Shown: positions 8,752 to 44,341, numbered from the stretch's first letter. The stretch is 64,000 nt of DNA from Cenarchaeum sp. (GCA_965242695.1 CBDESU010000001.1:1760001-1824000); one strand, 5' to 3'. Program-made: numbers and translations. Notes: a model not told the origin generated them from the sequence alone.

Positions 8752-8849
8752 GGGCGATCGGGCCGGCCGCAGGCGCCTTGCCAGGACGGGCAGGCGGTCG
8801 AGCATGGCGTCTGAACGAGGGCGATCGGGCCGGCCGCAGGCGCCTTGCC
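8752..8849. repeat. repeat-spacer-repeat unit: 31-bp perfect direct repeat around a 36-nt insert
   Basis: GGGCGATCGGGCCGGCCGCAGGCGCCTTGCC at 8752-8782 and 8819-8849. Confidence 0.9.
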
Positions 8850-8981
8850 GCCCCTCTCCCCACCCCCCCCCCCCCACCCCCGCCGCCCGGCTCAGCCGAT
8901 GCCGGCCCCGACCGCAACGCCGGCAGGGGCCGGGCGGCAAGCATGGGCGCGGCGCGGGCCGCGGATCCGCCCCTAGCAAAC

Positions 8982-8988
8982 TTTATAA
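8982..8988 (+). promoter_or_regulatory. archaeal TATA box of ssb
   Basis: TTTATAA with an upstream A-rich BRE-like sequence, about 25-30 nt before ATG 9012 (leaderless arrangement). Confidence 0.7.
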
Positions 8989-9011
8989 TCACCCCCGGTC
9001 GGCGCCGCGCC

Positions 9012-9326
9012 ATGAGCAGCAACGAGACTGTGACGACGGAGCAGGCCAAGAACATGCGCAGCGGCGTCAACATAGAGGCCGCGCTGACCAGAAAGGGAGA
9101 GTCCAGGACGGTCAACACAAAGGCGGGCAACCAGATCAACGTGTGCGATGCGTACCTAAAGGACGACGCAGGCGAGATCAAGCTCACCCTGTGGGGCGAC
9201 GACATTGAAAAGGTCAAGGATGGCGACCGCGTCAAGATCACCAACGGCTACATCAGCGAGTTCAGGGGAGAAGTGGCCCTTACAAAGGGCAAGTTCGGCA
9301 AGATGGACGTCACGCCCGGCGCCTAG
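9012..9326 (+). CDS. ssb: single-OB-fold single-stranded DNA-binding protein
   Basis: RTVNTKAG, VCDAYLKDDAGEIKLTLWGDD, VKITNGY, LTKGKFG: crenarchaeal/thaumarchaeal SSB type. Confidence 0.88.
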   Translation: MSSNETVTTEQAKNMRSGVNIEAALTRKGESRTVNTKAGNQINVCDAYLKDDAGEIKLTLWGDDIEKVKDGDRVKITNGYISEFRGEVALTKGKFGKMDVTPGA

Positions 9327-9347
9327 CCCGGCGGCCCAGTGCCAGCC

Positions 9348-10046: not shown

Positions 10047-10254
10047 CCGCGGGCGGCGCGGCGCGGCATGGCAGAGGCGGGCGGCGGGCAGATGATCACC
10101 ATCGTGTGCGCCCCGCACGGCGGCCTTTATTCAAGATATGCGCGGTGGGACACAGGGCGGCGGGCGGCGGATGCGGGCATCCGTTCCATCGCAGATAACG
10201 ACACCCCGCTTCTAGACAGAGCCTGCGGGCGGCGCGCCTTGGCTTGCCGGCTGC

Positions 10255-11775: not shown

Positions 11776-11939
11776 GCCCACATTCAACGGCGTGGGCGCC
11801 CCGCGGTTCCTATTAAAGATGACCATCCAATGTTCAGCTTGGGCCGCATGCGGGCGCGCCGCCGCCCCTGCGCCCGCCCACGCCCACGCGACGGCCGCAC
11901 TGCAATGTTAATACCGCGCCCGGGCGGCGGCGCGCCGCC

Positions 11940-13466: not shown

Positions 13467-13502
13467 CAAGGGCGGGCGGGGGCGCCGATCGGACGGGCCG
13501 GA

Positions 13503-16775: not shown

Positions 16776-16779
16776 CGCC

Positions 16780-20202: not shown

Positions 20203-20707
20203 TGACGCGCGCGCCGCCGCCGCGGGAAATATAAATCGTGGAAGGTCGGATCCGGTTGGATCGAGGATTTTGGCAGGGGCGCGGCAGGATGCGGCAGGCG
20301 TCGCCGCCCTGCCCGCGCCTCCTGCTAGGGCAGGGGGGTCGCATCCCCGTCCCGCCCGCTGCCGCCAGGCGCGCTTGCCGTCGTCCGATGGCAGTAGCAA
20401 GCATCGCACGGGGCCAGACACGATGGCCCCTGCCGCCAGGCGCGCGCGGCGCCGTCGGGCGCGGGCAGGGCAGGGCAGGGCTCCCGGCGCGGCTCGGACG
20501 GGGGCGGGCCACGCGCGGCATGCCGCTGCCGGCGGGGCGCTGCAGGCCGGGGCGCGGCAGGCAGCCGCCGCCAGAGGGCTTGCCCTGCCAGGCGGCATGG
20601 CATGCAGGGGGAGGAGAACCCAAGGGGAGAGGGCGGGCAGGGCATAATTTTCGCGCAGGCGGCTCGCCGGCGGCAGGCCTTAAATCGCAGCCTAGCGGTC
20701 GAGGCGC

Positions 20708-23471: not shown

Positions 23472-23665
23472 GCGGCGGCGCCTTGATCTCGGTATTTAAA
23501 ACATGGTCGGAGTGCCCCTGCATGGCGGGGATCCATGCCGCGCCGCGCGTGCAGGACCGCCCCCGCATGCAGGCCAAATGGCGGCCCGGTCCACGCATGC
23601 CGGCGGCGCAGGCGGGGCGCAGGGCCACCTCCCCCCCTCCTGCCGCCCGCCGGCCCGCCAGACAG

Positions 23666-23870
23666 CAGGGCCGTTTGCATCGCCGGACAGCCCTGCCCGG
23701 GGCCGGCCCTATGCCCTGCGCGGGCGCCCCTGACATCAGGGTCGTTCGCATCGTCGGACAGCCCTGCAGCCGGCGCGGGCGGGGCGCAGAGCCCCCTCTC
23801 CCAGATCGACCCGTCCAGACCAAAGAGCCTGGACGAGGCAGCCGGCGCGGGCGGGGCGCAGGGCCCCCTC
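23666..23870. repeat. two adjacent repeat-spacer-repeat units (periods 71 and 72 bp)
   Basis: 31-bp pair at 23666-23696/23737-23767 (3 mismatches); 33-bp pair at 23766-23798/23838-23870 (1 mismatch); more diverged copy near 23604. Confidence 0.8.
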
Positions 23871-23998
23871 CCCTGCCGGCCCAGTGCGCCCGGCCGGCCC
23901 CCCCCCCCCCCTAGGCGCGGTCAGGCGCGGGCCGGCGACGGCGGCCCCCTCCGGCCCACGCCAAAGGTTCATAAAATCGGGCAGGGGCGCCCGGCCGG

Positions 23999-24646
23999 TT
24001 GTTTTCAATATCCAGCCTGGCAGACGTGGTGAGGATCCCCCCCAAGATGTTCGGCACGACCCTCAGGAAGGCGGCCATCGACATACTCAAGGAAAAGTAC
24101 GAGAGCATGATCAACGCCGAGCTCGGCTACATCATCATGATCCTTGACGCGAGGGTCGAGGAGATGGGCAAGATGGTCGCCGGCGACGGCAGCACGTTCC
24201 ACAGGGTAGAGTTCGACGCGCTCACGTTCTACCCAAAGCTGCAAGAGATCGTCAACGGCGAGATCGTCGACATTACCGACTTTGGGGCGTTCGTCAGGAT
24301 AGGCCCCACCGACGCCCTGCTGCACCTCTCGCAGGTCATGGACGACTACCTCAAGAGCGACGTAAAGTCGGGCATCATAATCGCCAGCCAGAGCGGCCGC
24401 ACCCTAAAGGTCGGCTCTACGCTGCGCTCTAGGATCACGGCCGTCTCGCTCGGCAAGGGCGCCTCGATGGGCAAGATCGGCATCACCTGCCGGCAGCCGC
24501 ACCTGGGCACCGACGACTGGATCGCAGAGGGCCTCAAGGCCGCCGCCGGGGGCGGCAAGGGCGGCTCGGCGGACGGGGCCGACGCCGCAGGCGGAGGCAA
24601 GGGCAAGGCCAAGAAGCCCTCTGGCGGCAAGGGGAAGGAGGGGTAG
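23999..24646 (+). CDS. rpo7: DNA-directed RNA polymerase subunit Rpo7 (E')
   Basis: DVVRIPP, GDG, S1 domain FGAFVRIGPTDALLHLSQ, GITCRQP.LG. Confidence 0.95.
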   Translation: MFSISSLADVVRIPPKMFGTTLRKAAIDILKEKYESMINAELGYIIMILDARVEEMGKMVAGDGSTFHRVEFDALTFYPKLQEIVNGEIVDITDFGAFVRIGPTDALLHLSQVMDDYLKSDVKSGIIIASQSGRTLKVGSTLRSRITAVSLGKGASMGKIGITCRQPHLGTDDWIAEGLKAAAGGGKGGSADGADAAGGGKGKAKKPSGGKGKEG

Positions 24647-24652
24647 CGCAGC

Positions 24653-24841
24653 GTGGCCCGCGAGATGGCATGCCGCAAGTGCAAGTATGTGACGACCGGC
24701 AAGGTGTGCCCCGCGTGCAAGTCGTCCGACCTGACGCCGGACTGGACTGGAATAGTGCTGATCGTCGAGCCGAACGGCTCGCAGATCGCCTCGACCCTCG
24801 GCATTACATCCAAGGGCAAGTACGCCATCAAGGTGACGTGA
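24653..24841 (+). CDS. spt4: transcription elongation factor Spt4 (RpoE'')
   Basis: ACRKC...CPAC, W.G...I..P..SQIA..LGI...GKYAIKV; follows rpo7. Confidence 0.95.
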   Translation: MAREMACRKCKYVTTGKVCPACKSSDLTPDWTGIVLIVEPNGSQIASTLGITSKGKYAIKVT

Positions 24842-24845
24842 CGCG

Positions 24846-25796
24846 TTGGCGACTGCCGGGGCAGGCGCGGCGGCGGCAAAGCGGGCCGCGGCGGGGCGCG
24901 ACAGGGACTTGGCGCGGTTCCTTGCAGAGGACTCGGCCGGCCGCGACATTACCGGGTCGCTTGTGCCGAACCTCGCCGCCGAGGCGCGCATCGTATGCGC
25001 CGACGCGGGGCGCATCGTGGTGGCAGGCGCCGCGCATGCCGGCAGGGTGTTTGCCATGCGCGGCTGCCGCGCTAGCGCCGCCGCGCGGGACGGCAGCCGC
25101 GCTAGCGCCGCCGCGCGGGACGGCAGCCGCGCGGGGCCCGGCGCGGCGATCCTCTCGGTGCGCGGCCCCGCAAGGGCCATCCTCGCCTGCGAGAGGACCG
25201 CGCTCAACCTCATGTCCCGCATGAGCGGAATAGCGACGGCGACGGCCGGGATCGTCGAGTCGCTCGAGGGGACCGGCGTCGAGGTGCTCGCCACCCGCAA
25301 GACGGCCCCAGGCCTGAGGCGGTTCGACAAGGAGGCCGTCGAGATCGGCGGCGGCAGGAGGCACCGCATGTCGCTCGGCGATGCCGTCATCATAAAGGAC
25401 AACCACATAGCGGCCGCGGGGCCCGTCGGGGACCTGGTCAGGGCGGCCCGGAAGAGGAGGGCGGCCCGGCGCGGGCGGTGGGAGATCGAGGCAGAGGCCG
25501 AGACCGTGCGCGAGGCCGTAGAGGCGGCCGAGGCCGGCGCCGACGCCGTAATGCTAGACAACTTTGCGCCGCGCAGGGCCGCGGCCGCCGTCGCCGCCCT
25601 GGAAAAGGCCGGCCTCAGGGGGCGCGTCAGGGTCGAGGCGTCCGGCGGGATAACCGCGGCGACTGCCGCGCGCTACGCGGCCGCCGGCGTCGACTCTGTC
25701 TCCGTCGGCACCCTGACGCACTCGGCGCCGGCCGTAGACTACACGCTAGAGATCGCGCAGCGGGCCGGCTCCGCCCCGCCCGGCGGGTCAGCCTAG
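24846..25796 (+). CDS. nadC: nicotinate-nucleotide diphosphorylase (quinolinate phosphoribosyltransferase)
   Basis: ERTALN, SGIAT, ATRKTAPG, HRMSL.D, KDNH, MLDN, EASGGI. Confidence 0.95.
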   Translation: MATAGAGAAAAKRAAAGRDRDLARFLAEDSAGRDITGSLVPNLAAEARIVCADAGRIVVAGAAHAGRVFAMRGCRASAAARDGSRASAAARDGSRAGPGAAILSVRGPARAILACERTALNLMSRMSGIATATAGIVESLEGTGVEVLATRKTAPGLRRFDKEAVEIGGGRRHRMSLGDAVIIKDNHIAAAGPVGDLVRAARKRRAARRGRWEIEAEAETVREAVEAAEAGADAVMLDNFAPRRAAAAVAALEKAGLRGRVRVEASGGITAATAARYAAAGVDSVSVGTLTHSAPAVDYTLEIAQRAGSAPPGGSA

Positions 25797-26747
25797 CGCC
25801 AGCATCCGCTCGATCGCCTGGCGGGCCCTGCCGGCAGTCTCGGCGGGGACCGCGACCTCGTACCTGTCGTGCAGCAGCGAGTCGCGCACCTTTTCGGGCG
25901 TGATCATCTTCATGTAGCGGCACTCGGCGCCGTCCGAGGCGGCGACAAACTCCTTTTCAGGGTTGGCCTTGCGCATGCGGTAGAGTATGCCCGTCTCGGT
26001 GGCCACGACGAACCTGCGCGCGTCCGACTCGGCGGCGCGCTTCATCATGCCCTCGGTCGACAGTATGCGGACGGGGCGGTCGCCGTACTCGCCGGCGGCC
26101 GCATCGCGCAGGAACGGCGTGGTGCAGCTGCACTCGGGGTGCACCACGAACTCGGCGCCGGGCATCGAGTCGAGCTTTGAGAGGACGTCGTCGGGCGATA
26201 TGCCGGCGTGCACGTGGCACTCGCCGGCCCACACGCGCATGTTGCTGCGCCCCGTCTCCTTTGCGACGTACGAGCCGAGGAACATGTCGGGGAGGAACAG
26301 CACCTCGCGGTCGCCCGGTATGGCGTTGACGACGGCGACGGCGTTCGAGGACGTGCAGCAGTAGTCGAGCTCGGCCTTTACCTCGGCCGTCGTGTTGACG
26401 TACCCGACCGCGACGGCCCCGGGGTGGCGGGCCTTCCAGTCCCGCAGCTGATCGGCCGTTATCGTGTCGGACAGCGAGCAGCCCGCCTCCAGGTCGGGTA
26501 TGAGGACGCGCCGGTCGGGGCTTATGATGGCCGCCGTCTCTGCCATGAAGTGCACGCCGCAGAACAGTATGCGGGCGCTGTCGGTCCTTGCAGCCTGCCG
26601 GGCGAGGCCGAGCGAGTCGCCGATGTAGTCTGCCACGTCCTGGACCGCCGGCACCTGGTAGTTGTGCGCGAGTATGACGGCGTCGCGCTCCTCCTTGAGC
26701 GCGAGTATCTGCTCGCGCAGCCCCTCGGCCTGCTCCTGCACCTGCAT
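25788..26747 (-). CDS. nadA: quinolinate synthase
   Basis: ILAHNYQ, GDSL, FCGVHFMAET, AGCSL, YVNT, CHVH, HPEC, C.YMK; TTTAAA upstream. Confidence 0.96.
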   Translation of the reverse strand: MQVQEQAEGLREQILALKEERDAVILAHNYQVPAVQDVADYIGDSLGLARQAARTDSARILFCGVHFMAETAAIISPDRRVLIPDLEAGCSLSDTITADQLRDWKARHPGAVAVGYVNTTAEVKAELDYCCTSSNAVAVVNAIPGDREVLFLPDMFLGSYVAKETGRSNMRVWAGECHVHAGISPDDVLSKLDSMPGAEFVVHPECSCTTPFLRDAAAGEYGDRPVRILSTEGMMKRAAESDARRFVVATETGILYRMRKANPEKEFVAASDGAECRYMKMITPEKVRDSLLHDRYEVAVPAETAGRARQAIERMLALG

Positions 26748-26865
26748 GTCGACGGGGGCGGCGGGCCGTATTGATTTAAAGACCCGGCATGGTGCAAGAT
26801 GGGGCCCTCTCCGGCGCGGAAGCGGCAAGGATTGCCGCATCAGGGGGAGCCGGCGCGGGGCGGCC

Positions 26866-27711
26866 CTACGTGCCCCTCTTCACGCCGCCCGGCTCGCACG
26901 CGGCCCTGAGGGCCTCGATGGCAGAGAGGACGGCGAGCCGGCTCGTCCGCGGGTTGGACGGGTCTGGCACGTTGCGGACCGTGACGGCAAGATCGCCGAA
27001 CGCTCCGGACGCGGCGATCTCGTGCCGGTTGCGCGTGGCGGCCGGGTCGGCCACGACCCTGACGCGCGTCGAGCCGGCGCCGAGGCCGGCGAGGGCCAGC
27101 GCGGCGGCGACGTTGACGTTGGCGGGGAACAGGGCGACGGCCTCGGCCGCCGTGCCGTCGAATATCGTCGTCGCCTCCGAGATCGACGACGGGTCGGCGC
27201 CCGACTCTTCAAAGAACGGCGCCCCCCTGAGCGAGTCGGGGTGCTTTGTCGTCGTGAGCACGACCGAGTCGAGCTCGCCCTGGACGGCCTTTAGGCAGTC
27301 GATCCCCGCGACGGCCCCCGACGGCAGGATGAGGGTCCGGCCGTACTGCCTGCACGCGCCGGCGAGTACGTCGAACACGGCGGGGTCGAGCAACGCGCCG
27401 ACGCTCATGACCAGCAGGTCCTTGCGGTTCTGCAGGACGCTCAGGGCCGAGGCCCGCACGGCATCCTGCGAGGCCGCCTCTACGACGATGTCGACGCCGG
27501 GCCCCGACGAGAGGAGGTGCGCGTTCGGCACGACCTCGGGCCTTGACGACAGGGACGATGCGAGCGACTCGGCGCGGGCCGCGTCCACGTCGTGCACGCG
27601 GACTAGGCGGGCCCCGATGCGCCCCGAGTCGATCGCGGCGGCGATCTGGGATCCCATGGCGCCGCAGCCTAGCAGCGCCACCCTCTTGCGCGGGGCGGCA
27701 GCCTCTGCCAT
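26866..27711 (-). CDS. nadX: L-aspartate dehydrogenase
   Basis: GCGAMG, VEAAS, MSVGAL, PSGAVAGID, FPANVNVAA, NPRTS; clustered with nadA/nadC. Confidence 0.92.
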   Translation of the reverse strand: MAEAAAPRKRVALLGCGAMGSQIAAAIDSGRIGARLVRVHDVDAARAESLASSLSSRPEVVPNAHLLSSGPGVDIVVEAASQDAVRASALSVLQNRKDLLVMSVGALLDPAVFDVLAGACRQYGRTLILPSGAVAGIDCLKAVQGELDSVVLTTTKHPDSLRGAPFFEESGADPSSISEATTIFDGTAAEAVALFPANVNVAAALALAGLGAGSTRVRVVADPAATRNRHEIAASGAFGDLAVTVRNVPDPSNPRTSRLAVLSAIEALRAACEPGGVKRGT

Positions 27712-28990: not shown

Positions 28991-28991
28991 G

Positions 28992-31120: not shown

Positions 31121-31145
31121 GCCCTGCCAGGGCGGCGGAGGCGGG

Positions 31146-31978: not shown

Positions 31979-32188
31979 GGGCGGCCGGCCGGGGCGGAAA
32001 ATTTAACCCTTTGGCGGGGCGGCCGCGGGGAGGCGCGGGCGGGGGACGTATACGGCCCTGCCGCCACCGGCCGCGCTGGAGCGGCCTGCCACTGCGCCGG
32101 GCCGCATGGGACGCCCCGCCGTCCCGGGCAGCGCAGGGGGGAAGAGGGCATGCGGCGGCTCGGGCCGGCCCTTCAAATCGGCCGCAGG

Positions 32189-32366
32189 GTGCGCGCATGC
32201 GATCGGGCGTAGGAGCGTGTGATCACGGCACGACAGGCGCATGGATGGCAGACGGCCCCGTGCGCGCATGCGATCGGGCGTAGGAGCGTGTGATCACGGC
32301 ACGACAGGCGCATGGATGGCAGACGGCCCCGTGCGCGCATGCGATCGGGCGTAGGAGCGTGTGATC
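32189..32366. repeat. 36-bp repeat x3 separated by two identical 35-nt spacers (71-bp period)
   Basis: GTGCGCGCATGCGATCGGGCGTAGGAGCGTGTGATC at 32189, 32260 and 32331. Confidence 0.92.
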
Positions 32367-33045
32367 CGCGGGCCGGCCCTGGCATGCACGGCAGGCGCCT
32401 GGTGCCAGGACGGCGCCGCGGGACGGAGCAGGTGCGGACAGTGTGGGGCGCCGAGGGCCGGCGCACCGAGAACGCCGGTCGAGGGCGCCGAGGGCCGGCG
32501 CGCCCGGGCCGGCTCGAGTCGATCTAGGCAGTAGGAGCAGGCCCAAGGCGACAGGAAGCGAGGATGTATAACCGCCCTAGCGGCAGGCCGGGCCGCGGCA
32601 AAACCCGGCGTTTGCAAAAGGCGAGAAATCCATTCCCCGTGCACGGTAGATCCCGCCGGCGGCGCCGTGGGCTGCTCGCTGGGAATCCAGCTCGAGTAGG
32701 CACTCCGGCGGTGCGGGGGCGGGCGCCGTGAAGCGCAGGGAATTGCGCGCCGGGAATCCATCCCACCGGCGCGCCGCGGATGCTGGCGGGGCGCGGGCGC
32801 GACGCCCTTCCCCTTGCAGGCCGCGCACCAGGCGGCAGACAGTAGAAGGAGTGCGGAATTGCGGGTCCGGCGGGGCGCGGGCGCGGGCATTACAGCACCT
32901 GCGACCGCTGGGCGCCCGGCGCGCCCCTAGGCGCCCATTCCGCGGAGGCCGGACCTGGCTGGGCGCGGCCGCAATGCGCCCCATCTCGCCACAGTGCGAG
33001 CATATCGGGCGCAGGCTGGGCGCGGCACGCGCCGCATCGCCGCTA

Positions 33046-34267: not shown

Positions 34268-37200
34268 TCAAGCTACAGTCCGGCGCACTCGACGGCGCCT
34301 GCGGACGGCCCACGCGACGGCGACCGCGCCGGCAGCCGGAGCGCCGGCGTACACCACCGACACGAGCAGCATTGCGGCAATGCCGTACGCGAGCACAGAG
34401 TCCTCAGAGGCCGGATCGGCGTGCGTTGCGACCTGGAGCGTGTAGAGCATCGGCATCATCAGCGCTGCGACGGCCTGGCGGAACGCCGGATGCTCGCGCT
34501 CCAGGTCCGCCACCTGCGGCGAGAATGCATAGTAGGCCGACGAGAATGCAGACATGAAGGCCGAGCCCGATCCCGTCGCAAGGAGCGTCCCGTCCCTGTA
34601 CTCGCGCAGGGCCTGCACCTGCGGGGCAAGCTCGGTCCCGTACGCGGCCGTCGCGATCAGGCAACCCGAGTCGTCATCGTCCGGCGCGGCCGTGCCCGTG
34701 GTCGGCTCGCGGTCCGCATCCTGTGCATCACCCATGCCGTCCTTGGGCTCGGCAACCTTGCCGGCCAAGTGGGCCTCTACGCAGCCGGACGCGACTCCGA
34801 CGGCCTCGCAAATGTCGGCGTACTGGGGGTACGAAGAGTCGAACCACTCGCGATACGCCGGCTGCTCGGCATACCGCTTGACATAGTACGACGCATCGCG
34901 GCCCTCTTCAATCTCAAAGGCGGGGCGCACGAGCTCTGGCTCGGCATCCTCGCCGGCCATTTCGTCCGATGGCTGCGACACTGCGGGGGCATCTGGCTGG
35001 CGCGGCTGATCATCCGTCGGCTCCCTAGCCGGCGCGGGCTCACCGCCGGTTATGTCCTCGACCGACATGCCGGCCGGCTGAGCCGTGCCGTCGCCTGGCG
35101 CGTACTGCCTAAAGACCGTCTCGCCCGTGCAGGCGCCGCCCGTGCGTATTGACTCGGACACCGACGAGACCGCCCTGCCGTCGACCGCGGTTGCCCTGAT
35201 CGAGAATATGCCGTCCGTTGGCAGCGGCGCCTCGTAGATCGTCCGCCCCGACATGTCCTGCACGTCGGCCAGCGTCGCCGGCACCGTACCGGTCGACGAG
35301 ACGACCACGATGTCTGGCGAGCGCATGCCGTCATTTACCGCCATTCGGACGGTGCCGTCGTCGCAGTCCCAAGAGGCAGAGTATAGGACGGGGCCGCCCG
35401 ATCCAGTCGGTATGATCGAGCCGCCGCCGCCGCCTCCGCCGCCACCACGTCCGCCGCCGCTACCTCCGCCGAGGAACGCCGGGCCGGCCTGACCCGCGGG
35501 TCCTGTCGCATCCGGCGGCGGGACGACAACAACCGGCGGTTTCGTGCCGCCGTCACCACCGGTCTCCTTTGGCATGACGGTGACGACCATCGTGTGCATC
35601 TCCATGTCCACGAGCGTCACCGTGCCAAACCTCGTGAGGTGGTACGTGTGGATGACCTTGTCGTCGCCCGAGTCGAGCTGGCACTCGCCAGTCCCATTCA
35701 GCTGATCGTGCACCTCTGACGTGCTGTCGGCCCTGCACATGGTGTTGATCGGCATGACGGCATCGTCGCTGTTGTTCATGTAGAATGCCCTTCCGCCAGC
35801 CTGTCCCTCTAGGAGTATGCGGATGGGGATGGTGAACGTAATGTGTGTCTCGCTATCGCCGATCTCTACGATCTTCCCTATCCGCACGCTGTTATTGCCA
35901 AGGTCTAGCGCCGCGATCACGTCGTCCGCCTCGGGGCGCTCGTTGCCAGAGACGACGTACAGCTCCAGATTGCCGTCTGCCGGAACAGACATGGCCGTCG
36001 CGTTCGGCGGGATCACAACCTGGGCAAACGTGGTCGTCACGGTAATGTTCCTAGAGTCTGGGAACCTCACCGTGTTGTTGGCGGGGTCGGACACGAGAGG
36101 AGTGTCGCTCAGGCCCGTAATATCGATCCCTATGCGCGCAGTGTCGTTGCCGCGCGTAGTGACCTCGCTGACAATGCTGTCGCGTGCGATCTGCACGGTT
36201 CCGCTATCCTGCAGGGTTATTGTCCTGCTAAGAGCCCGTACAGGGATCGTGTCGTTGGTGAATGTGTATGTGATATTGCCTCTAATTCCTTCCAGGTCCT
36301 TGTTCAGCGCAATTTCTCCCGCCTGCATCTCGGCCACGCTACCGTTAAACGTGACCGTATGTGCTTCGGTCCCCAAGCCGGTTACATCTATCGTGGGCGC
36401 ATCCAAGCCCGCCTCGCTGGTTACACGGCCGTACGCATCGCGGGGCCCATCAAGCGGCCCTGTGTAGCTGATCACCGCCTTGTTGCTCGATATGAACTGC
36501 GCATCGGCCAATACTTCGACTTCGGTGCGGGTGGGCGGAGTGACCACCGTTGGCGGCGGTGCAATAGTGGCATTGATATCCACAGTGACAGGCTCGTTTA
36601 CAATGCCCTCGAACCACGCCCCTCCCGCTTCGGTGCTGTGTGCCCTGACAGACACCAGCATCTTCGTGCCGTTCGGCAACGGCGCATGGCCTATCACGTG
36701 CGTCGTGGCGGCATTCGCGCTGACACCGGCGATTGGTATTACCGTGCCGTTCTCATACGTGATGGCATAGTGGTATGCCGCAGGCGGGATCGTGCCGTTG
36801 ACCCCCTGCGAGGCATCGTGCGTGTCAATGGGGTGCGTGTAGTCCGCCTCCAACGCGATTCCGTTCGAGGTGATCCGGGTAAGGGTCGCGGGCGTTGTAC
36901 TCCGCCCGTCCGAGGTGGCAAGCACGGCCAAGGGCTGCGACGTTCCCTCGTACGTGTAGCCAGACCCCTCGTCGTCAAGCGCAGATATGGTCACCAGTAC
37001 CCACGTGCCGTTGCTTAGCACCTCGTGCTCAACCATGTGGGTTTTGCTACCGCTTCCGGTGATGTTTGTGATCGCGACCGTCTGGTCGTTTTCCTGTATG
37101 CGGATCGTGTAGTCGTCGATCGCCGCATCGACGGGGCTCGTGTACGTGGCCGTTAGCATGCCTTGGGCGGACTTGATCGATTCTAGGCCCGCCCTCATCG

Positions 37201-40200
37201 ATGTTTCTGCGATCGAGCCATCGCCGCCTATCTTCTGGTTGACGGCACCGGCAAACGCAACGTATCCATCGGGGTTGTCGAGCTGCCCAATGTCGATCGT
37301 GCCCGTCGCGCCGGCCGCAGCTGCAGTTCCATTGAATACTAGAACGTGCTCGGCAGTGCCGCTTCCGCTCACGCTCATGACTGCACGCGATCCGCCCGGC
37401 GCAAGATCTAGTCCCGTGTAGTCCGAGGTGTCGGCGTCGACGGCCCCCGTGTAGTTGATCGTGATGTTGTTGCCCGACGTGATAGAGGCGGACCGCAGAC
37501 GAACCATGTCGGGCGCAGGGAACGGATCCATCCCGACAGCTGCGGGATAGTTTCCAAAGCCGATCGTGTCGCCGTTTGCGTTTGCGGCAAATCCCTGCTG
37601 GATATTAACACGAAGACCCTGGTATCCCCCGCTCACAGTGTGGTTCAGCAATGCTTCGCGGAGCACTGTGGAATAATCGATTGTGGTGTTTGACGGGAGC
37701 ATTGTAATGATGTTCGCATTTTTGTTCCCATCTAGATCAATGTCCTCATTATAGCCCGTATAGTTGCCCCACTGTAGTGCAAGAACCGGCACTGGTATGT
37801 AAGACGTCATACCTGCGATCTTTATTCCAATGCGCTCGCTCCCGTTAATGGTAATCACTTCCGTGTTTTTATCAGGCCGATAGTCGTACGATGTACCATT
37901 CCATCTCATCGGTATGGACACCTTTGAGAGGTCGATGCTGGACACGTCGACTGCCTCGTTGAGGTAGAGCTGAAGCACCATGTGATCCGAGAGGATGTGT
38001 AGGTACGGATTGGTCGTCGGAGTGTAGGAACCCGCACTCAGGCTGGAGATGTCCACAAGCGCCGAGCCCGACAGAACCACGCTTGCGGTACTCGCATTGT
38101 TGATGTACTGCTGATCGTAGAGATACGCGTCTGCCCCCCTGTACGCAACGCCGATATTTGCTATCGGGTCGCCGTTTGTTCCCAATGTGCCGTCCGAGCC
38201 GGTCACGCTTGCGGTGATCACCAAGCTGGTGCGGGCGTCATCTGGAATGTCTTCGGCAAGCGTTATCATGTGATGCGTGCCCGGCATCTGCATCATGCGG
38301 CAAAGAGATTCAAAGTTTGAAGATGCGTTAGTGACCCCTCCCCTAGCTACGCGCCCTGTCTCCTCATCAAGCACAATTCCGAACGGCGTGGAATAGAACT
38401 CGCATTCCGTGGCCGTCTCGCCGGAATGGACATTCAGATGCTCGACGCCCACCAAGGTACTGACCTCGTCGGACATTACAAGCCACTGGTTCTTGTATAC
38501 GACTACATCGTGATCAGATGCTGAATTATTCCACCCGGCGGCATACCACTTGGCGCCGCCAGCCCATGCGCCCGTATAGTTTACGCCCGTGTAGTTTCCG
38601 ACCCAGTCCTCCAGTCCCCAACTGCTTTTCTCCAAGTCGACAACCTGCACGAATATCTCCGCGCCGTTCGAGAGGAGGAGCCGGCCGACATAACTTCCAT
38701 CTCCATCGCCCCTAACTTGACCAATATTATTAGGCGGCGTCACATCCGGGTTGCGCCAGTCGCCATGGAATCCCACAATGTCCGCCCTGTCCAGTACGAC
38801 GGGCTGGCTGAAACTACGACCGAGCGTCGACATGGTCCCTGTACGCACCATCGATACGTCCACTTCTGTCGGCTGCCCGTCGTTGTCGTACACTACTACT
38901 TTTTGGTACCCCGACAGCGGACCGACCGTGGGCTGGTCGTACTCTACAACGACGGTGCGATCCCCAGTGATCCTCGCAGACACTACTCTTGGCAGCTGCT
39001 CGTCGTAGACAAACTCGTTCGTATAGTCGCGGCCCACCGGCGTGTTGTCGAGCTGGGCAAGGCCCGTCACGTTGATCAGGCCATATGCAGACCTTCCGAC
39101 GCCGCTGCTGCCGTTTATCGTCAGCTTGTGCAGGGCGGTGCCGTTGCCCTCGACGCCCACAATGTCGAGACTTACGAACGTGCCGTTGTAGTTTGTGCTG
39201 TTGTATGTCCACGAGTAGTCGAATTTTTCAGAGGCGTTGGCATACGGCATGCTAGCCGCGCTTGCAAGCACGGAATATCCGCCATCCGGTACCCACGCGC
39301 TCGCGTTGTACGAGACCGTCACCTCGTTGTAGCCGGTAAACCTGGCCGCGATCATCCACGGCGCGCCGTCCATATTGCGCGCATCTGTGATTGGAATATC
39401 CTCGACGGCCAGCATAGTGTTGCCATTCAGGTCGGTCACGCCGACAATGCCGATGACACCCGCTGCTACAGAACCTCTTGCCACCAATGGAATTGGCCTA
39501 TCTGGCATGTCGAGCATGAGGGTGTGCATAGCGGTCCCGTTGCCAGCAACGACGGCGGTCACGGTGCGGTTTCTGGCATCGAATTGAAGATAGTCCGAGG
39601 CAATGGTGATAGCCTCGTAGTTGGCGGGCGACGAGTGGACGGGCTCGCTGAATGTGACGTTGATTGACAGGGGGCCCACGATCTCTGCGCGGATCGGCCT
39701 AGGCGCCATCCCGTCATCTACCACGACCGGGTTGTCCAAAAGGGCATTCCCTATTACATATGTTCCATTAACAAGGTACTGCGAGGCATCCTTGACGTTG
39801 CTTCCATTGATGTTCAACATGCTTATTTCGTCCAAGGACACAGACGATTCCAAGCCCAGCACATGCTGTACGGCAGTCTCCAGCGGGGCAATGGCAAGGC
39901 CGTCGCCATCGCCGCTCACAACAGATGTGACAGCTACAGTGCCGCCGCCAGCAAGTGTGATGGAATAGTCGGCATAGCTTGCGTATGAGACGGGCTCGTC
40001 GTAAGCGACAGCCAAGGTTCTGTCCGAGGTGAGCTTTGCAGAGACCACTGCTGGGCGCTGGGCGTCGTAAACTGGTTCGTAAACAAACGTCGTGGGATCA
40101 TCCCAATCGGAAGCCCAGCCAGACCACAGTACGTTGCTAGCGTTGGTTATCCTGCCGACATATATGCCCGCATCGGCGGCATTTTTTGCAACCGGCGGGC

Positions 40201-40702
40201 CGTCAAAGGTCAGCGTATGCACCGTTGTCCCGTCTCCGGTGATGCGTGTGACGTTACGCAGATCATAGTCGACAGAATCGTAATCTTCAGGATCCATGCC
40301 CACCACGTAACTCATCGAAAGATTGGCGTCTACAGTAGCACTTTTGGTGTACGTGATGGTAAGCTGGTTAGGAGAGACGAACACAGCGGCGTTGTCAATA
40401 TTGTCGATCGATAGATCAGAATCAGTCGCCTGCGCATACGCCTGGACGGCCAGCCACGCACCGCCAGCGCCCTGGCCGTGCAACCAAGAGGTATAGTCGA
40501 CCTCTCCGATGCTGCCATCGTGGTACGGCACGGCAAGCGCGGCCGGCAGTGCAAGAACGGCGCACAAGGCCAAGACTGCCAGTCGGCCAGCCTGTGCGCC
40601 AGAGCGTCTGGAAGCCGCTACAGGCGCCGCCCGATCGGGCGCGCGGCAAGGCGTACCCTCGGCCCTGCCGGCGCGGGCTGCAAGCCGCTGGCCAATGCCC
40701 AT
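34268..40702 (-). CDS. giant cell-surface protein (about 2144 aa) with Ig-like repeats and CFI-box-CTERM
   Basis: ATG 40702 with TTATATA upstream; hydrophobic signal, beta-rich D.Q.P...SA...Y..P repeats, many NxS/T sequons, C-terminal GCLIATAAYGTELAPQVQALRE plus TM and Arg tail. Confidence 0.88.
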   Translation of the reverse strand: MGIGQRLAARAGRAEGTPCRAPDRAAPVAASRRSGAQAGRLAVLALCAVLALPAALAVPYHDGSIGEVDYTSWLHGQGAGGAWLAVQAYAQATDSDLSIDNIDNAAVFVSPNQLTITYTKSATVDANLSMSYVVGMDPEDYDSVDYDLRNVTRITGDGTTVHTLTFDGPPVAKNAADAGIYVGRITNASNVLWSGWASDWDDPTTFVYEPVYDAQRPAVVSAKLTSDRTLAVAYDEPVSYASYADYSITLAGGGTVAVTSVVSGDGDGLAIAPLETAVQHVLGLESSVSLDEISMLNINGSNVKDASQYLVNGTYVIGNALLDNPVVVDDGMAPRPIRAEIVGPLSINVTFSEPVHSSPANYEAITIASDYLQFDARNRTVTAVVAGNGTAMHTLMLDMPDRPIPLVARGSVAAGVIGIVGVTDLNGNTMLAVEDIPITDARNMDGAPWMIAARFTGYNEVTVSYNASAWVPDGGYSVLASAASMPYANASEKFDYSWTYNSTNYNGTFVSLDIVGVEGNGTALHKLTINGSSGVGRSAYGLINVTGLAQLDNTPVGRDYTNEFVYDEQLPRVVSARITGDRTVVVEYDQPTVGPLSGYQKVVVYDNDGQPTEVDVSMVRTGTMSTLGRSFSQPVVLDRADIVGFHGDWRNPDVTPPNNIGQVRGDGDGSYVGRLLLSNGAEIFVQVVDLEKSSWGLEDWVGNYTGVNYTGAWAGGAKWYAAGWNNSASDHDVVVYKNQWLVMSDEVSTLVGVEHLNVHSGETATECEFYSTPFGIVLDEETGRVARGGVTNASSNFESLCRMMQMPGTHHMITLAEDIPDDARTSLVITASVTGSDGTLGTNGDPIANIGVAYRGADAYLYDQQYINNASTASVVLSGSALVDISSLSAGSYTPTTNPYLHILSDHMVLQLYLNEAVDVSSIDLSKVSIPMRWNGTSYDYRPDKNTEVITINGSERIGIKIAGMTSYIPVPVLALQWGNYTGYNEDIDLDGNKNANIITMLPSNTTIDYSTVLREALLNHTVSGGYQGLRVNIQQGFAANANGDTIGFGNYPAAVGMDPFPAPDMVRLRSASITSGNNITINYTGAVDADTSDYTGLDLAPGGSRAVMSVSGSGTAEHVLVFNGTAAAAGATGTIDIGQLDNPDGYVAFAGAVNQKIGGDGSIAETSMRAGLESIKSAQGMLTATYTSPVDAAIDDYTIRIQENDQTVAITNITGSGSKTHMVEHEVLSNGTWVLVTISALDDEGSGYTYEGTSQPLAVLATSDGRSTTPATLTRITSNGIALEADYTHPIDTHDASQGVNGTIPPAAYHYAITYENGTVIPIAGVSANAATTHVIGHAPLPNGTKMLVSVRAHSTEAGGAWFEGIVNEPVTVDINATIAPPPTVVTPPTRTEVEVLADAQFISSNKAVISYTGPLDGPRDAYGRVTSEAGLDAPTIDVTGLGTEAHTVTFNGSVAEMQAGEIALNKDLEGIRGNITYTFTNDTIPVRALSRTITLQDSGTVQIARDSIVSEVTTRGNDTARIGIDITGLSDTPLVSDPANNTVRFPDSRNITVTTTFAQVVIPPNATAMSVPADGNLELYVVSGNERPEADDVIAALDLGNNSVRIGKIVEIGDSETHITFTIPIRILLEGQAGGRAFYMNNSDDAVMPINTMCRADSTSEVHDQLNGTGECQLDSGDDKVIHTYHLTRFGTVTLVDMEMHTMVVTVMPKETGGDGGTKPPVVVVPPPDATGPAGQAGPAFLGGGSGGGRGGGGGGGGGSIIPTGSGGPVLYSASWDCDDGTVRMAVNDGMRSPDIVVVSSTGTVPATLADVQDMSGRTIYEAPLPTDGIFSIRATAVDGRAVSSVSESIRTGGACTGETVFRQYAPGDGTAQPAGMSVEDITGGEPAPAREPTDDQPRQPDAPAVSQPSDEMAGEDAEPELVRPAFEIEEGRDASYYVKRYAEQPAYREWFDSSYPQYADICEAVGVASGCVEAHLAGKVAEPKDGMGDAQDADREPTTGTAAPDDDDSGCLIATAAYGTELAPQVQALREYRDGTLLATGSGSAFMSAFSSAYYAFSPQVADLEREHPAFRQAVAALMMPMLYTLQVATHADPASEDSVLAYGIAAMLLVSVVYAGAPAAGAVAVAWAVRRRRRVRRTVA

Positions 40703-41169
40703 GTCCGGCGGCGCCCAAAGAGGGCTATATAACAATTCTGTAGGGGGGTGGGGGCACGATCCCCACTCCACGCGCCAAATTTCCGGCCAAAAAGCCGCCA
40801 TTGTGTGCAATTCCAGACGTCCCTGGGCGCCAGAACCGCAAGGCCTTGCAGGGCGGCGCGCGGGGACTCCAAAGGCGTCGCACGCAGGCCTAGGCGCAGG
40901 GGCAGGGCAGGTGCGGCAGACAGGATGCGCAGAGGCGCGAATAGCCGATCGGGGCGGCGGGGGCAGGAATGCCGCCAAGCCGTACAGCAGCAGGCGCGGC
41001 GCGCGACGGGAGAACTGGGGCCGTGTGGTCGGCGGCCCCTCGACATGGCGCCACGGCGCGGCCGCGGCCGATCGGGGCAGTCGGCGCCGTGGCGCGGCAG
41101 GGCCGGCACGGCTGCGGCGGGCGGGCAGAACAGGACAGTGATGGCGAGGGCCAAGGCGTCCAGGCATGG

Positions 41170-41275
41170 GAGGCAGGTCCGCGCAGGGCCGCGCCCCGCA
41201 TCGGCCGCAGAGTCTGCGGCTGTCGGCAGGGGGGATGTCAAGAGGCAGGTCCGCGCAGGGCCGCGCCCCGCATCG
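41170..41275. repeat. repeat-spacer-repeat unit: 34-bp perfect repeat, 38-nt insert
   Basis: GAGGCAGGTCCGCGCAGGGCCGCGCCCCGCATCG at 41170 and 41242. Confidence 0.9.
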
Positions 41276-41361
41276 CTGCCGGCTGCGGACCGCCGCCAGC
41301 CCCACGTCGCGCCCGCGCCGGATGCGCTGCAGTGGATTGGAGGATGCGCCCGATCTCCGAG

Positions 41362-41461
41362 GGCGGATGCATGCCTCGCGGCCCTCGCGCCGAGCCGCCT
41401 GGCCCGCCAGGGATCGGCCGCCGCGGCGGATGCATGCCTCGCGGCCCTCGCGCCGAGCCGC
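41362..41461. repeat. repeat-spacer-repeat unit: 37-bp perfect repeat, 26-nt insert
   Basis: GGCGGATGCATGCCTCGCGGCCCTCGCGCCGAGCCGC at 41362 and 41425. Confidence 0.9.
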
Positions 41462-41636
41462 AGGACAGAGGCGCGCGCGAGCCGCCATGTCGGCGGGCAG
41501 GGCGGCATTCCTCCCCCCGACGGCCCGCGCAGCCCGCAAGTCGGTCCGTGCGCCTGCCGCCCGAATGCGAGATGCGGCCGCAACAGCGGCGGCACAATAT
41601 ACAACGGCATAAATACGGCAGACGCATCCCGCAACC

Positions 41637-42803
41637 ATGGCGGGGCAGGCGGCAAAACTCGTGGCCAAGCAGATGGGGCGGCGCGGAGCGGCGTACTGGC
41701 TGTACGAGCACGAGTACGAAGGTGGGATCGCGGAGCTCTTGGAGAAGCTCGACGCGATGCTGCGCGAGGACCGGCGGCTGCAGGTCACTGCGATGATCCT
41801 CGTCTGCAAGGAGGACATGCTCGGCAGCCTAGACGGGGGGCGGTCCAGGCCCCCGTTCGCCGCAGAGGTGGTGCGGCTGGACAGGGAGACTGGCATGGCA
41901 AGCATCTCGGTCGGCGGAGAGGGCTCCGGCGGGCCTGGGATGGTGCGGATTGCAAAGATGCAGGATCCGTTCGTATACCTTGCCATCACCGGCGGGAGCG
42001 CCGCGTTCGTGGACCGCGCGCTCGTGCCGTTCGTCCAGTCGCTCTATCCCGGCGTGTCCGAGGCGGCCCTGAGCTCGGCCGAGATGCGCGGGGCGCTCGA
42101 CATCCTCGAGCGCAGGTCGGGCGGGGAGGTCAGGATCGCCGGCGTGGAGGCATGCCCCAAGGAGGACGGGGCGGGCGGCAGGCGCGGCGGGCCCGATGTG
42201 GGGGAGAGATGGGACGGGGTGCATGGATCGTTCGCGGCAGGCGCGGATGCCCCGTACCGCGACGCCCTTGACGAGGCCGCCGAGGGTGGCCGGCGGATAG
42301 GCAGGGTGCAGATGCGTCTGGTCCGGGACGGCACCCCCTCGATGGAGTGCCAGATCTCGAGGCGCTGCCTGCTCCGGTTCCGGCTGTCGATGCGGCCGTT
42401 CTGCACGAGCGCGCTGCCCTACATGGCGGGCCTGGCAAGCGGCAAGACCAGGCTCTACTCGGGGCGCTCCAAGATGGAGAACGGCGGCCGCATCAGGGCT
42501 CTCGATATCGTGCTGGACGACGATGTGTTCAGCAATGTCCACGAAAACGAAAGGCTTGTGCGCATCATCCGCGCCATGCCGCACAGTGCTGGAAGCGCGT
42601 ACAGCATCTTCCCGTACGTGCACAGGTCACTGGTCGACTACATGGACGGCTCGTCGTTCGACATACTGGTGACCACCGCAGACAGGATAACCATCGTGCT
42701 GCAGCCAAGTGCCACGCATGCATCCATTGCGCGCCTGGTAAACCACATATTCGAGCGGTTCGCCGAGGGGCGCGTAGAGGAGCATCATGAAGCGCGGCAG
42801 TGA
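41637..42803 (+). CDS. uncharacterised protein, copy 1 (partner of downstream nuclease)
   Basis: 388-aa ORF with CATAAATA upstream; C-terminal DY.DGSSFD...I.IV.Q...A..ARL.NHIF..F.EG; paralog at 44501. Confidence 0.8.
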   Translation: MAGQAAKLVAKQMGRRGAAYWLYEHEYEGGIAELLEKLDAMLREDRRLQVTAMILVCKEDMLGSLDGGRSRPPFAAEVVRLDRETGMASISVGGEGSGGPGMVRIAKMQDPFVYLAITGGSAAFVDRALVPFVQSLYPGVSEAALSSAEMRGALDILERRSGGEVRIAGVEACPKEDGAGGRRGGPDVGERWDGVHGSFAAGADAPYRDALDEAAEGGRRIGRVQMRLVRDGTPSMECQISRRCLLRFRLSMRPFCTSALPYMAGLASGKTRLYSGRSKMENGGRIRALDIVLDDDVFSNVHENERLVRIIRAMPHSAGSAYSIFPYVHRSLVDYMDGSSFDILVTTADRITIVLQPSATHASIARLVNHIFERFAEGRVEEHHEARQ

Positions 42804-43743
42804 CGACGCGCACAGGGCGCTGGCCGATTGCAGATTGTACAAGCTGACTACAGTGATGCTCATGGCGATCGGCTCCATGTTCAGAAGCCACTTCGGCGCA
42901 TCCGTCGGCATGGGCAGGGCAGTGAGGAGGATTTCCGCCGACGGCGCGGCCATGCCCGACCCCGTGACGCCGGACATGATGGCGCAGGGGCGCGGCCTGA
43001 ACGTAGTGGTAGAGATCAAGGCAAGCTTTCCCTCGGGCGCCCGTGCGCGCCAGAAGATCCTCGACCAGCTGAAAAAATACGACTGCAGGCTGGTCGGCTG
43101 GCCAGAAAAAGATGTGTTCGAGCACGACATCATGGCGGTGACCCGATCGGAGGATGCCTCAGAGATGTCGGTATATTTGCAAAAAAAGACCGGTATCGGG
43201 AAAGATATGTTTTCAAACCCGCTGTGCGTGATCGAGTTTGCCCAACCAGGAGGAGGCAAGAAGTCGTTTTTTGTCAGGACGGCATCAGGAAATCCCACAA
43301 ACAAAGAGCTGCGATCATATATGGAGAACGGCGCGGAGATCAACGTCGGCTCCGTCTCACTCGCATTCAGCACGCTCTGGTTCTACGACAGTGAGCCCAT
43401 GCCCCCGTATACAATGACCGTAATCTGGGAAAAAATATTCTCGGAGGTTTATAGAAGGAAGGCCAGCGGCCTGGCACATGGACGGGAAACCGTCCTGCTG
43501 CGTATGACAGTCGATGAGGTTATGGACAGGTTCCGTGCGCTCGCAGTCTCCACGCCAAGGGCCCCGCGCCGCAGGTGGATTGTCAAGGGAATGGACGGGC
43601 TGGTCAAGATCGGGATGGCGAGGAAGGACGAAGACGGGGCCTACATCGTCGTCTATCCCGCGATTGAAGGTGAAGACCTGCTGGAGGTTTTTGCCAGGAA
43701 GTGGGCCGTCGCGCAAAGCGGCGATCCCCGGGGGCATGCCTAG
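42787..43743 (+). CDS. PD-(D/E)xK restriction-endonuclease-fold protein with possible C-terminal winged helix
   Basis: TPDMMA...VVVEIKAS...DQLKKY; overlaps the upstream gene by 17 nt; lower GC. Confidence 0.7.
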   Translation: MKRGSDDAHRALADCRLYKLTTVMLMAIGSMFRSHFGASVGMGRAVRRISADGAAMPDPVTPDMMAQGRGLNVVVEIKASFPSGARARQKILDQLKKYDCRLVGWPEKDVFEHDIMAVTRSEDASEMSVYLQKKTGIGKDMFSNPLCVIEFAQPGGGKKSFFVRTASGNPTNKELRSYMENGAEINVGSVSLAFSTLWFYDSEPMPPYTMTVIWEKIFSEVYRRKASGLAHGRETVLLRMTVDEVMDRFRALAVSTPRAPRRRWIVKGMDGLVKIGMARKDEDGAYIVVYPAIEGEDLLEVFARKWAVAQSGDPRGHA

Positions 43744-44232
43744 GCCGCGGAGAACCTGCCCGGCCAGGGCTGCCTGCGCCGAAGGAGCAGGATGCGCCGC
43801 ATGCGCACATCCAGGCCGCGGTGCAGGCCGCTGCGCCGGTACTCTCGCATGCAGGGCTCGGGCCCCTGCGGCGCCGGCCTCCAGGCAGCATGCCGTGAGG
43901 GCCGCATACCCTGCCGGCCGCCTAGCGCACCCTCGCCGCCTCGCCCTCGGGGCCTGCACATCCGCTGCCCGCGCGCGCGGCCGCGCCGGCCCTGCATCTC
44001 CGCTCTCCCCGCCCGGCGCAGATTCGCAGGCGCAGCCCCGTCCGGCCGCCGCCTGGCGGCGGCCCCCCGCATTCCGTATCGGACAAGCGAACGCGCGGCG
44101 GGCGCCATCATCCATGCGATCCGCGGCCATGTGGCCCCCGCACTTCAGGGGCGCCCGCCGGCACCTGGGGCGATCTTTGCCGTCCGCATGCACCCGGCGC
44201 AGCGGCCCGCAGTCCGTCCGGCCGCCTGCCCG

Positions 44233-44341
44233 ACCCCATCATGTACATGATCAGCGGCCTCCTGCCACAGCAATATGTGGCGGACTCGAACAAGCCGGGC
44301 GGCACCCCGTCATGTACATGATCAGCGGCCTCCTGCCACAG
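44233..44341. repeat. repeat-spacer-repeat unit: 38-bp repeat (1 mismatch), 33-nt insert
   Basis: ACCCC(A/G)TCATGTACATGATCAGCGGCCTCCTGCCACAG at 44233 and 44304. Confidence 0.9.

Follow-up and report, generated by a model that had tools for sequence, protein, structure and literature searches.

A 64,000-nucleotide (nt) stretch of DNA from Cenarchaeum sp. (GCA_965242695.1, CBDESU010000001.1:1760001-1824000; hereafter the window) contains short direct repeats that flank an insert of about their own length, and units of the same build are dispersed throughout the genome to which it belongs (hereafter G000; 3.89 Mb, 68% guanine plus cytosine (GC), two contigs C1 and C2, the window being G000:C1:1760001-1824000). 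Denoting by T either copy of the target that has been duplicated and by S the sequence inserted between the copies, so that a unit reads T-S-T, we curated 106 of these units and conclude that they are very probably the scars of off-target spacer integration by the Cas4/Cas1 fusion and the Cas2 of the type I-G CRISPR system resident in G000. This reading is carried by four observations, namely the geometry of the units, the polarity of the insertion, the distant sources of some of the inserts and, within the genus, the co-occurrence of units and integrase. A preliminary description of the window had proposed that a Cas1-family integrase of relaxed specificity inserts spacer-sized DNA, duplicates its target and in this way inflates intergenic regions; the first part of this proposal is supported by our results, and the inflation of intergenic DNA is not.

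The units were detected by a genome-wide scan for direct repeats with lags of 40-110, extended with tolerance for mismatches from 12-nt seeds. With the CRISPR array set aside, the isolated gapped repeats with periods from 67 to 74 numbered 5, 7, 11, 11, 27, 35, 10 and 2, or 108 altogether, against 0-3 for each of the other periods that are not multiples of 3. Periods that are multiples of 3 carry coding repeats, such as the 28 found at period 102 that derive from TPR genes. A first-order Markov genome of equal size held no repeat of at least 24 nt at lags 40-110. The pattern is therefore beyond chance, and the genome-wide period peak anticipated in the preliminary description does exist. The curated set retained the units with a period of 66-75, a T of 28-45, a gap of 26-46 and at most one neighbouring pair. 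Among these 106 units the period has its mode at 72 (36 units), followed by 71 (24 units), and both T (range 28-45) and S (range 26-46) have their mode at 36. The two copies of T differ by no mismatch in 51 units, by one in 26, by two in 16, by three in 8 and by more in the last 5.

The same dimensions recur in the single large CRISPR array of the genome (C1:1072688-1096404), which consists of 330 repeats of 36 nt. Its spacers measure 31 (1), 33 (1), 34 (30), 35 (77), 36 (121), 37 (66), 38 (28), 39 (4) and 40 nt (1), and its period of 70-74 has its mode at 72, the very mode of the dispersed units, so that the comparison with the organism's own CRISPR sizes suggested at the outset comes out in agreement. 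The dispersed units are not arrays of the usual kind, their repeats being mutually unrelated and mostly two per unit. A search of the whole of G000 for the Cas1 family returned one match, a 653-residue Cas4g/Cas1g fusion (NF049935, 688 bits for a cut-off of 560), which is followed by Cas2 (62.8 bits, cut-off 23.8) and then by the array; the genes expected of an integrase are thus present, beside the array itself. On the far side of the array lie Cas3g (602.7 bits, cut-off 400), Cas7g (Csb1; 142, cut-off 38) and Csb2 (219.6, cut-off 45), and also a Cas8g2 candidate that scores 111.2 bits, below its cut-off of 125. With these family matches, the region from csb2 to cas4/1 (G000:C1:1065868-1098883) is a type I-G CRISPR-Cas system.

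The preliminary description had also pointed to casposons, mobile elements that carry kilobases of cargo including a polymerase, are bounded by terminal inverted repeats and duplicate a target of ~14-15 bp. They share with the present units a Cas1-family integrase that leaves a target-site duplication, but in G000 the cargo is ~36 nt (26-46), the duplication is ~36 bp and there is no second Cas1 in the genome; with the Cas4/Cas1 fusion beside Cas2 and the array as the sole Cas1 match, the connection falls away. Further observations concern the surroundings of the system. Directly beside cas4/1 lie 4-5 further TPR-repeat genes, and transposase genes of the ISH3 and IS66 families adjoin the type I-G effector genes (L003 3253-6517 and 11765-13120; G000:C1:1055950-1065820). 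Far from the cas genes, at G000:C2:312248-312355, two copies of a second CRISPR-type repeat variant ending CCCATTGAAG stand 68 nt apart; they have the appearance of an orphan mini-array, or else of what is left of a further type I-G array.

All eight of the repeat pairs listed for the window in the preliminary description proved to be real and correctly placed; a single one, given at 23666 as a 31-nt repeat with a 40-nt insert, has other dimensions and is the 56-nt pair at 23641 below. The units of the window are as follows.

8752-8849: T-S-T; T1 8752-8782, S 8783-8818 (36 nt), T2 8819-8849; T of 31 nt, 100% identical, period 67.

20356-20385 and 20427-20456: decayed pair with 30-nt copies that are 83% identical, period 71, interpreted as an older unit.

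23641-23696 and 23712-23767: older complex unit of 56 nt at 80% identity, period 71, abutting the unit at 23766.

23766-23801 and 23838-23873: T-S-T; T of 36 nt, 94% identical with 2 mismatches, S of 36 nt, period 72.

32189-32401: T-S-T-S-T; a perfect 71-nt unit present 2.5 times, T of 36 nt, with an identical 35-nt S occurring twice.

41170-41203 and 41242-41275: T-S-T; T of 34 nt, 100% identical, S of 38 nt, period 72.

41362-41398 and 41425-41461: T-S-T; T of 37 nt, 100% identical, S of 26 nt, period 63, a short outlier.

44233-44270 and 44304-44341: T-S-T; T of 38 nt, 97% identical with 1 mismatch, S of 33 nt, period 71.

As had been described, these repeats share no sequence with one another. 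Their density is not significantly above that of the genome, the window holding 4 curated units where 1.75 are expected (Poisson p = 0.10). The unit at 8752 is located at the extreme 5' end of a minus-strand stop-to-stop frame whose product is an XPB-type helicase, and most likely sits upstream of the real start codon of the helicase, since its period of 67 is not a multiple of 3. The unit at 23641 lies in the divergent spacer between a Mrp/NBP35-type ATPase gene and the gene of RNA polymerase subunit E (Rpo7), and no counterpart of this part of the spacer was found in the related genome G004. The site at 32189, in the 1068-bp spacer between spt5/nusG and rpl11, is read as a unit enlarged by unequal recombination or slippage between its T copies. 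Three units of the window stand directly upstream of a pair of neighbouring paralogous genes (41637-42803 and 44477-45679) that have no Pfam match and are also paralogous to copies near C1:1.57 Mb (G000:C1:1571000-1576000).

Assemblers may generate short direct repeats or collapse them, which raises the question of an assembly or polishing artefact. Sequencing runs that hold window DNA are labelled as sponge metagenomes or bear coded organism names, and the unit at 23766 is spanned by contigs of independent runs (X10 over 23600-27130, X6 over 23600-25095); it is therefore not an artefact of the G000 assembly. More broadly, contigs from the independent runs of other studies cover 23641-23873 and reach into T at 32189 and 41170, and the same pattern occurs in three separately assembled genomes, which leaves an artefactual origin of the units with virtually no chance. 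At 41170, an X10 contig joins 41169 to 41242 and lacks 72 nt, 34 letters fitting both sides, in a manner indistinguishable from a graph artefact, as the 34 nt of T exceed the assembler word, which we take to be 31, and all words along the empty path therefore occur in the filled allele as well.

A repeat pair around a short gap could also be the decayed remnant of a local tandem duplication of ~71 bp, generated by replication slippage without any foreign insert. Such an origin would suit the sites at window 32189 and C1:1603098, where T and S are repeated together, and the pair at 23641 with its 56 nt at 80% identity. Across the 106 curated units, however, the identity between S and its flank averaged 0.29 after T2 and 0.28 before T1, compared with 0.28 for sequence located 300 nt away, and reached at least 0.5 in a single unit. 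The inserts being unlike their flanks, decayed two-copy tandem duplications are therefore ruled out for the curated set. The perfect identity of 51 T pairs and the 12 inserts that are copies of distant loci also speak against slippage, which moreover gives no reason for a 72-bp period equal to the CRISPR period in three genomes, and we consider it a very unlikely source of the units.

Direct evidence for insertion came from empty sites. Each site was rebuilt without one T and the S and compared with the genome, requiring at least 30 nt on both sides of T and at most 7 gap columns. An empty paralog with a single T was recovered for 10 of the 106 curated units, and a wider list of 182 candidate units added empty paralogs for window 41362, C1:1377966, C2:777136 and C1:740426. 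In direct alignments, C1:2062135 is separated from a paralog with ~98% identical flanks by a clean 72-nt gap corresponding to T plus S, and C1:398407 is a filled site for which all four paralogs (4/4) carry a single T. In the window, the site at 44233 is filled and its paralogs G000:C1:1573011-1573203 and 1571192-1571384 possess one T and lack 71-73 nt, and the filled site at 41362 has a paralog (G000:C1:1575754-1575933) with a single T and no insert. Since paralogs differ from one another far more than do the two T copies of a unit, it is the filled state that is derived. For a subset of the units, insertion is proven by the empty paralogs and by the distant sources of inserts. The preliminary description had suggested looking for empty sites in related strains or reads; those recovered here are in paralogs, and the join seen in run contigs at 41170 could equally be an artefact. 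Orthologous empty sites were sought in G004, but the intergenic DNA of the two species does not align. A coding case, at C2:1064841, is ambiguous, one G004 paralog being devoid of the 23 residues concerned and another having a similar doubled motif.

The inserts themselves were traced by searching the genome for matches of at least 26 nt at ≥90% identity, a match being considered confined to the insert when at most 8 of 15 flanking bases were identical on both sides. A distant match was obtained for 13 of the 106 inserts and was confined in 12 of these 13. Control segments of equal length taken 150 and 400 nt to either side (n = 424) match as often (44/424), the genome being rich in repeats, but their matches are confined in only 8 cases; confined matches thus distinguish the inserts from the controls (12/106 vs 8/424, Fisher p = 7e-5). 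Most of the insert matches begin at the first base of the insert and extend over 32-37 nt. In the related genome G002, two inserts have confined matches within the 360 kb sampled, and another starts with the final 17 nt of the CRISPR repeat of G002 itself, its source not being found at up to 3 mismatches in 20 kb of the G002 array. For three window inserts, an exact-pattern search of viral contigs gave 0 matches each. Self-derived sequences are much commoner at the ectopic sites (12/106) than in the array, where 2 of 329 spacers fully match their own genome (p = 2e-6), as expected if only array spacers are purged for self-targeting. These two spacers, numbers 246 (C1:1090347) and 320 (C1:1095675), match the chromosome perfectly at C2:698844-698878 and C1:975632-975669, respectively.

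The distribution of the units among relatives bears on the link with the integrase. A query of 30 relatives with the G000 Cas4/1 protein revealed close fusions in G004 (same genus, 79% identical), in G002 (same genus, 53%) and in G017 (another genus, 52%); in G001 and G003, both of the same genus, no Cas1 was found with this query. Relatives were sampled at 360-400 kb each and scanned as G000 had been; in the fractions that follow, the denominator counts all isolated gapped pairs and the numerator those whose period is 69-73.

G004: Cas4/1 and the same CRISPR repeat as G000; 16/28 pairs.

G002: Cas4/1, a related repeat and an array period of mostly 71-72; 22/47 pairs.

G001: no Cas1 found, 56% GC; 2/4 pairs, both doubtful.

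G003: no Cas1 found, 52% GC; 0/4 pairs.

G000: three samples of like size; 4/13, 7/15 and 8/23 pairs.

G017: type I-G with array, 39% GC; 0/3 pairs in 360 kb.

G031: a type I-G system and its array, in a lineage that is unrelated, 58% GC; 0/2 pairs in 380 kb.

G033: type I-G with array, unrelated lineage, 70.5% GC; 1/2 pairs in 380 kb, with six mismatches and doubtful.

Within the genus the units track the integrase, and they are general neither to type I-G systems nor to genomes of high GC. Two candidate causes of the off-target activity were tried and rejected. A lesion of the integrase does not fit, as the G000 Cas4/1 retains all the residues that are invariant across nine Cas4/1 proteins, among which the Cas4 cysteines, the Cas4 nuclease motif and acidic and histidine residues belonging to Cas1 can presumably be recognised. 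Loss of histones does not fit either, one histone-fold gene being present in each of the six genomes compared.

In G000, T begins with G in 60 of the 106 units (57%) and ends with C in 59, where ~37% is expected (p = 3e-5 and 3e-4), and the G start recurs in G002 and G004 (20/32). The GC content of T (75%) exceeds that of its flanks (71%) and that of the inserts (68.5%). Stronger folding of the targets (-0.304 vs -0.266 kcal per nt) was discarded as a determinant since it may merely reflect GC content. With regard to placement, candidate reading frames make up 57% of the bases, yet only 20 of the 106 units have most of their length within them (p = 1e-15), and the majority of these 20 occupy the opening tenth of a stop-to-stop frame and so are probably upstream of its start codon. 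Selection against insertions into genes would leave this pattern, and an intrinsic preference may be another source of it. The orientation of the neighbouring genes showed no clear bias (29, 16, 20 and 21 units for background shares of 0.26, 0.26, 0.21 and 0.27).

This placement invites the thought that the units are maintained functional elements rather than neutral scars, such as mini-CRISPRs from which guide RNAs are made, or regulatory repeats placed upstream of a gene: hardly any unit is inside a gene, many stand just upstream of reading frames, and some sites hold three repeats. Purifying selection, however, would leave the same absence from genes, and the placement relative to gene orientation is not clearly different from background. 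The repeats are all different from each other and unlike the repeat that the Cas6-like Csb2 should recognise. The units are also young and turn over, as the mismatch classes given above indicate (51, 26, 16, 8 and 5 units), and in the two spacers for which G000 was compared with G004, no unit is conserved. A maintained function thus appears highly improbable, and neutral scars of off-target integration remain our preferred reading.

The reaction of Cas1-Cas2 is established and forms the basis of the mechanism that we propose for these scars. The two 3' ends of a spacer-sized fragment would attack both strands of non-CRISPR DNA ~36 bp apart, and the filling of the two single-stranded gaps would duplicate the 36-bp T around the ~36-nt S, the outcome being a T-S-T unit with a period of ~72 and the geometry seen in the array. 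The choice of target would be loose, with a G-start and a GC-rich T, and the surviving sites would lie almost all outside genes. The captured fragments would include pieces of the cell's own chromosome devoid of a TTN-like flank, and some sites would be hit again or expanded, becoming mini-arrays of three repeats that have no relation to the true CRISPR repeat. Both of these outcomes have candidates in G000. The same insert is repeated at the three-repeat sites of window 32189 and C1:1603098, which fits unequal recombination between T copies. Three copies of T enclose two different inserts at C2:173431, C2:223805 and C1:2047122; these sites look like second hits in the same register and, by analogy, like a natural counterpart of the array birth proposed from work on E. 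coli. The most far-reaching version of the proposal, in which a type I-G module has in nature inserted DNA lacking a protospacer-adjacent motif (PAM), and often self DNA, at 100-200 ordinary sites per genome in this genus, in which the re-use of sites gives birth to arrays with new repeats and in which one ruler sets the sum of T and S at ~72 nt, is offered tentatively, as possible rather than probable.

Several observations weigh against attributing the units to the Cas4/Cas1 fusion, whose connection with them rests on geometry and co-occurrence; the catalysis by this particular enzyme and the manner in which the intermediates were repaired are inferred. T (28-45) and S (26-46) are far more variable than the corresponding parts of the array, and the periods have a tail at 63-69. 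About 90% of the inserts have no source found in our searches, and TT stands beside 0 of ~10 self-derived protospacers. The published PAM of type I-G is TTN, and both of the full self-matching array protospacers are flanked on the 3' side, in the sense of the CRISPR RNA, by TAA (TTA on the other strand); with n = 2, it is only a hint that the two corresponding spacers are flipped and hence harmless. Compared in register with the CRISPR repeat, T agrees at 13.05 of 36 positions where controls agree at 12.07, and no motif tied to position emerges; a resemblance of the targets to the CRISPR repeat was rejected on account of this marginal effect. The C end seen in G000 is absent as a trend in G002 and G004 (12/32). 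Lastly, G017, G031 and G033 possess a type I-G array and a Cas4/1 fusion yet are without units in the 360-380 kb sampled of each, apart from the doubtful pair of G033, so that the integrase alone is not sufficient.

Part of these facts would also suit a different, unrecognised integrase or a templated-insertion repair foreign to CRISPR, the match of periods being then coincidental or due to a ruler shared within the host. The absence of units from three other type I-G genomes, the self-derived sources without PAM, the targets unlike the CRISPR repeat and a period tighter than either of its parts, unforeseen by the textbook picture of two rulers, all lend themselves to this explanation. We know of no such alternative enzyme, and to our knowledge only the Cas1-Cas2 family duplicates a repeat-length target around a spacer-length insert. 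Within the genus, the units occur in 3/3 genomes with Cas4/1 and in 0/2 without, and the period distributions follow the array of each genome, all of which makes another integrase or repair route unlikely and the Cas4/Cas1 fusion with Cas2 the better candidate.

The relation between T and S is itself peculiar. Among the near-perfect units (n = 84), the standard deviation is 5.1 for T and 5.3 for the gap but 2.1 for their sum (r = -0.92), although the choice of periods 64-76 contributes to this tightness. Every class of T, from 28-31 up to 41-48, peaks at a period of 70-73, and in G002 and G004 all units with a T of 24-31 (8/8) have a period of 69-73. Long T are explained by 2-4 nt common to the fragment end and the target. 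Short T are only partly accounted for by changed T ends: in two older units with empty paralogs, the extra bases of S beside T2 match the ancestral flank, giving an original T of 36 in one and of at least 28 in the other, while the perfect units with short T show no likeness of the insert to the flank. In the latter units T begins with G in 16/25. Two readings of the short T may be envisaged, one in which the enzyme trades stagger against insert length, and one in which repair scrambles one end of T. A supply of the extra insert bases by 5' flaps of the prespacer was tried and rejected, the flanks of the protospacers not matching.

Regarding intergenic DNA, the preliminary description had expected it to be inflated by the units. 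The 106 units total ~7.6 kb of the 3.89 Mb, and no reservoir of decayed ones was detected: once known units were masked, 9-mers recurred 35 times at lag 71 and 36 times at lag 73 for a background of ~30, and a slight excess appeared only at lag 70 (50). The mismatch classes of the T pairs also drop off steeply (51, 26, 16, 8 and 5 units). Spacers between conserved gene pairs are nevertheless greatly expanded in the large genomes of the genus. The spt5-rpl11 spacer (window 31979-33045) measures 1068 bp in G000, ~900 bp in G002 and 5-70 bp in G001, G003 and G017, and the mrp-rpo7 spacer (window 23472-23998), with 528 bp in G000, reaches ~1370 bp in G004 but only ~157 bp in G003. The expanded DNA cannot be aligned between G000 and G004, though the flanking genes are 88% identical. 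A tempting explanation of the expanded intergenic DNA is thereby removed.

The window and its genome hold further features outside the units. A 30-nt tandem repeat of 2.4 copies at window 25061-25132 differs in copy number between samples, the X1 and X10 contigs lacking 30 nt at 25066. One of many TPR-repeat genes (49223-51295) contains 102-nt tandem repeats at 50143-51111. On the minus strand, a giant 2573-codon frame without Pfam match (34268-41989) lies in a stretch of only 57-58% GC, and another giant frame of more than 4014 codons (51956-64000), which runs off the window, carries 876-bp tandem repeats at 58562-62092. G000 matches the archaeal small-subunit rRNA model along its full length at 1450 bits, but as all 14 control genomes, bacteria among them, also give hits with this model, the match does not by itself settle the domain. 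Sequence is shared by the two G000 contigs at their ends (C1:2203127-2203579 with C2:5296-5748, and C1:18841 with C2:1665278); they may overlap and make up a single circular chromosome, or terminate in a common repeat.

Off-target integration is in itself already known; what stands out here is its natural scale, the clear contrast between clades and one mechanistic oddity. Nivala, Shipman and Church reportedly described, in Nat Microbiol in 2018, off-target integration and 'neo-CRISPR' loci produced by the type I-E Cas1-Cas2 of E. coli when the integrase was over-produced. Another paper states that natural evidence was circumstantial and came from two other species (bioRxiv 10.1101/148544). 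The E. coli events agree with ours in that a spacer-sized insert enters a non-CRISPR site with duplication of a repeat-length target, the re-use of which was proposed as the birth of an array. In contrast, the events reported here are natural and apparently fixed, number ~100 or more per genome, are seen in three species that belong to one archaeal genus, and have a Cas4/Cas1 fusion as their probable enzyme. For Pyrococcus furiosus, it is reported that Cas1-Cas2 integrates off target in vitro at sites with sequence features of the repeat (PMC6698737), so that there too an archaeal integrase inserts spacers into non-CRISPR DNA, and that histones lower off-target integration, chromatin proteins raising fidelity (PMC13748974). 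G000 differs in that the likeness of its targets to the repeat is only marginal, and a histone-fold gene is present. A further parallel is the adaptation module of type I-G, in which the Cas1 domain of Cas4/1-Cas2 trims PAM-less ends independently of sequence and non-specific integration products were observed (PMC10504553); the protein family is the same and the repeat has the same ending, ATTGAAGC. In the canonical reaction, the Cas4 domain selects the PAM and integration takes place at the leader-repeat junction, whereas the self-derived G000 inserts have no TT flank and are spread chromosome-wide. Neither dispersed units in these archaea nor natural events of such a scale were encountered in the full-text literature that we covered, a scope outside which lie supplements and the 2018 article, either of which may contain natural examples.

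Off-target integration had been known from an over-produced E. coli enzyme and from test tubes, its relevance in nature having been left open, and three wild genomes are here found to hold each on the order of a hundred or more such events. They offer data from nature on how a Cas4/1 integrase intrinsically chooses its targets. If the most far-reaching version of the proposal holds, the scars would be an unselected record of capture, taken before selection against self-targeting (12/106 self-derived ectopic inserts vs 2/329 array spacers), and the near-constant sum of T and S, ~72 nt with parts varying by ~5 nt, would point to one ruler that measures their total and not to two independent ones. 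The contrast between clades may be used to seek the factor that ensures fidelity, units being absent from close relatives and from other type I-G genomes. Finally, arrays with entirely new repeats would be in the course of being born in these archaea, the re-used sites providing natural candidates for the first steps of array birth.

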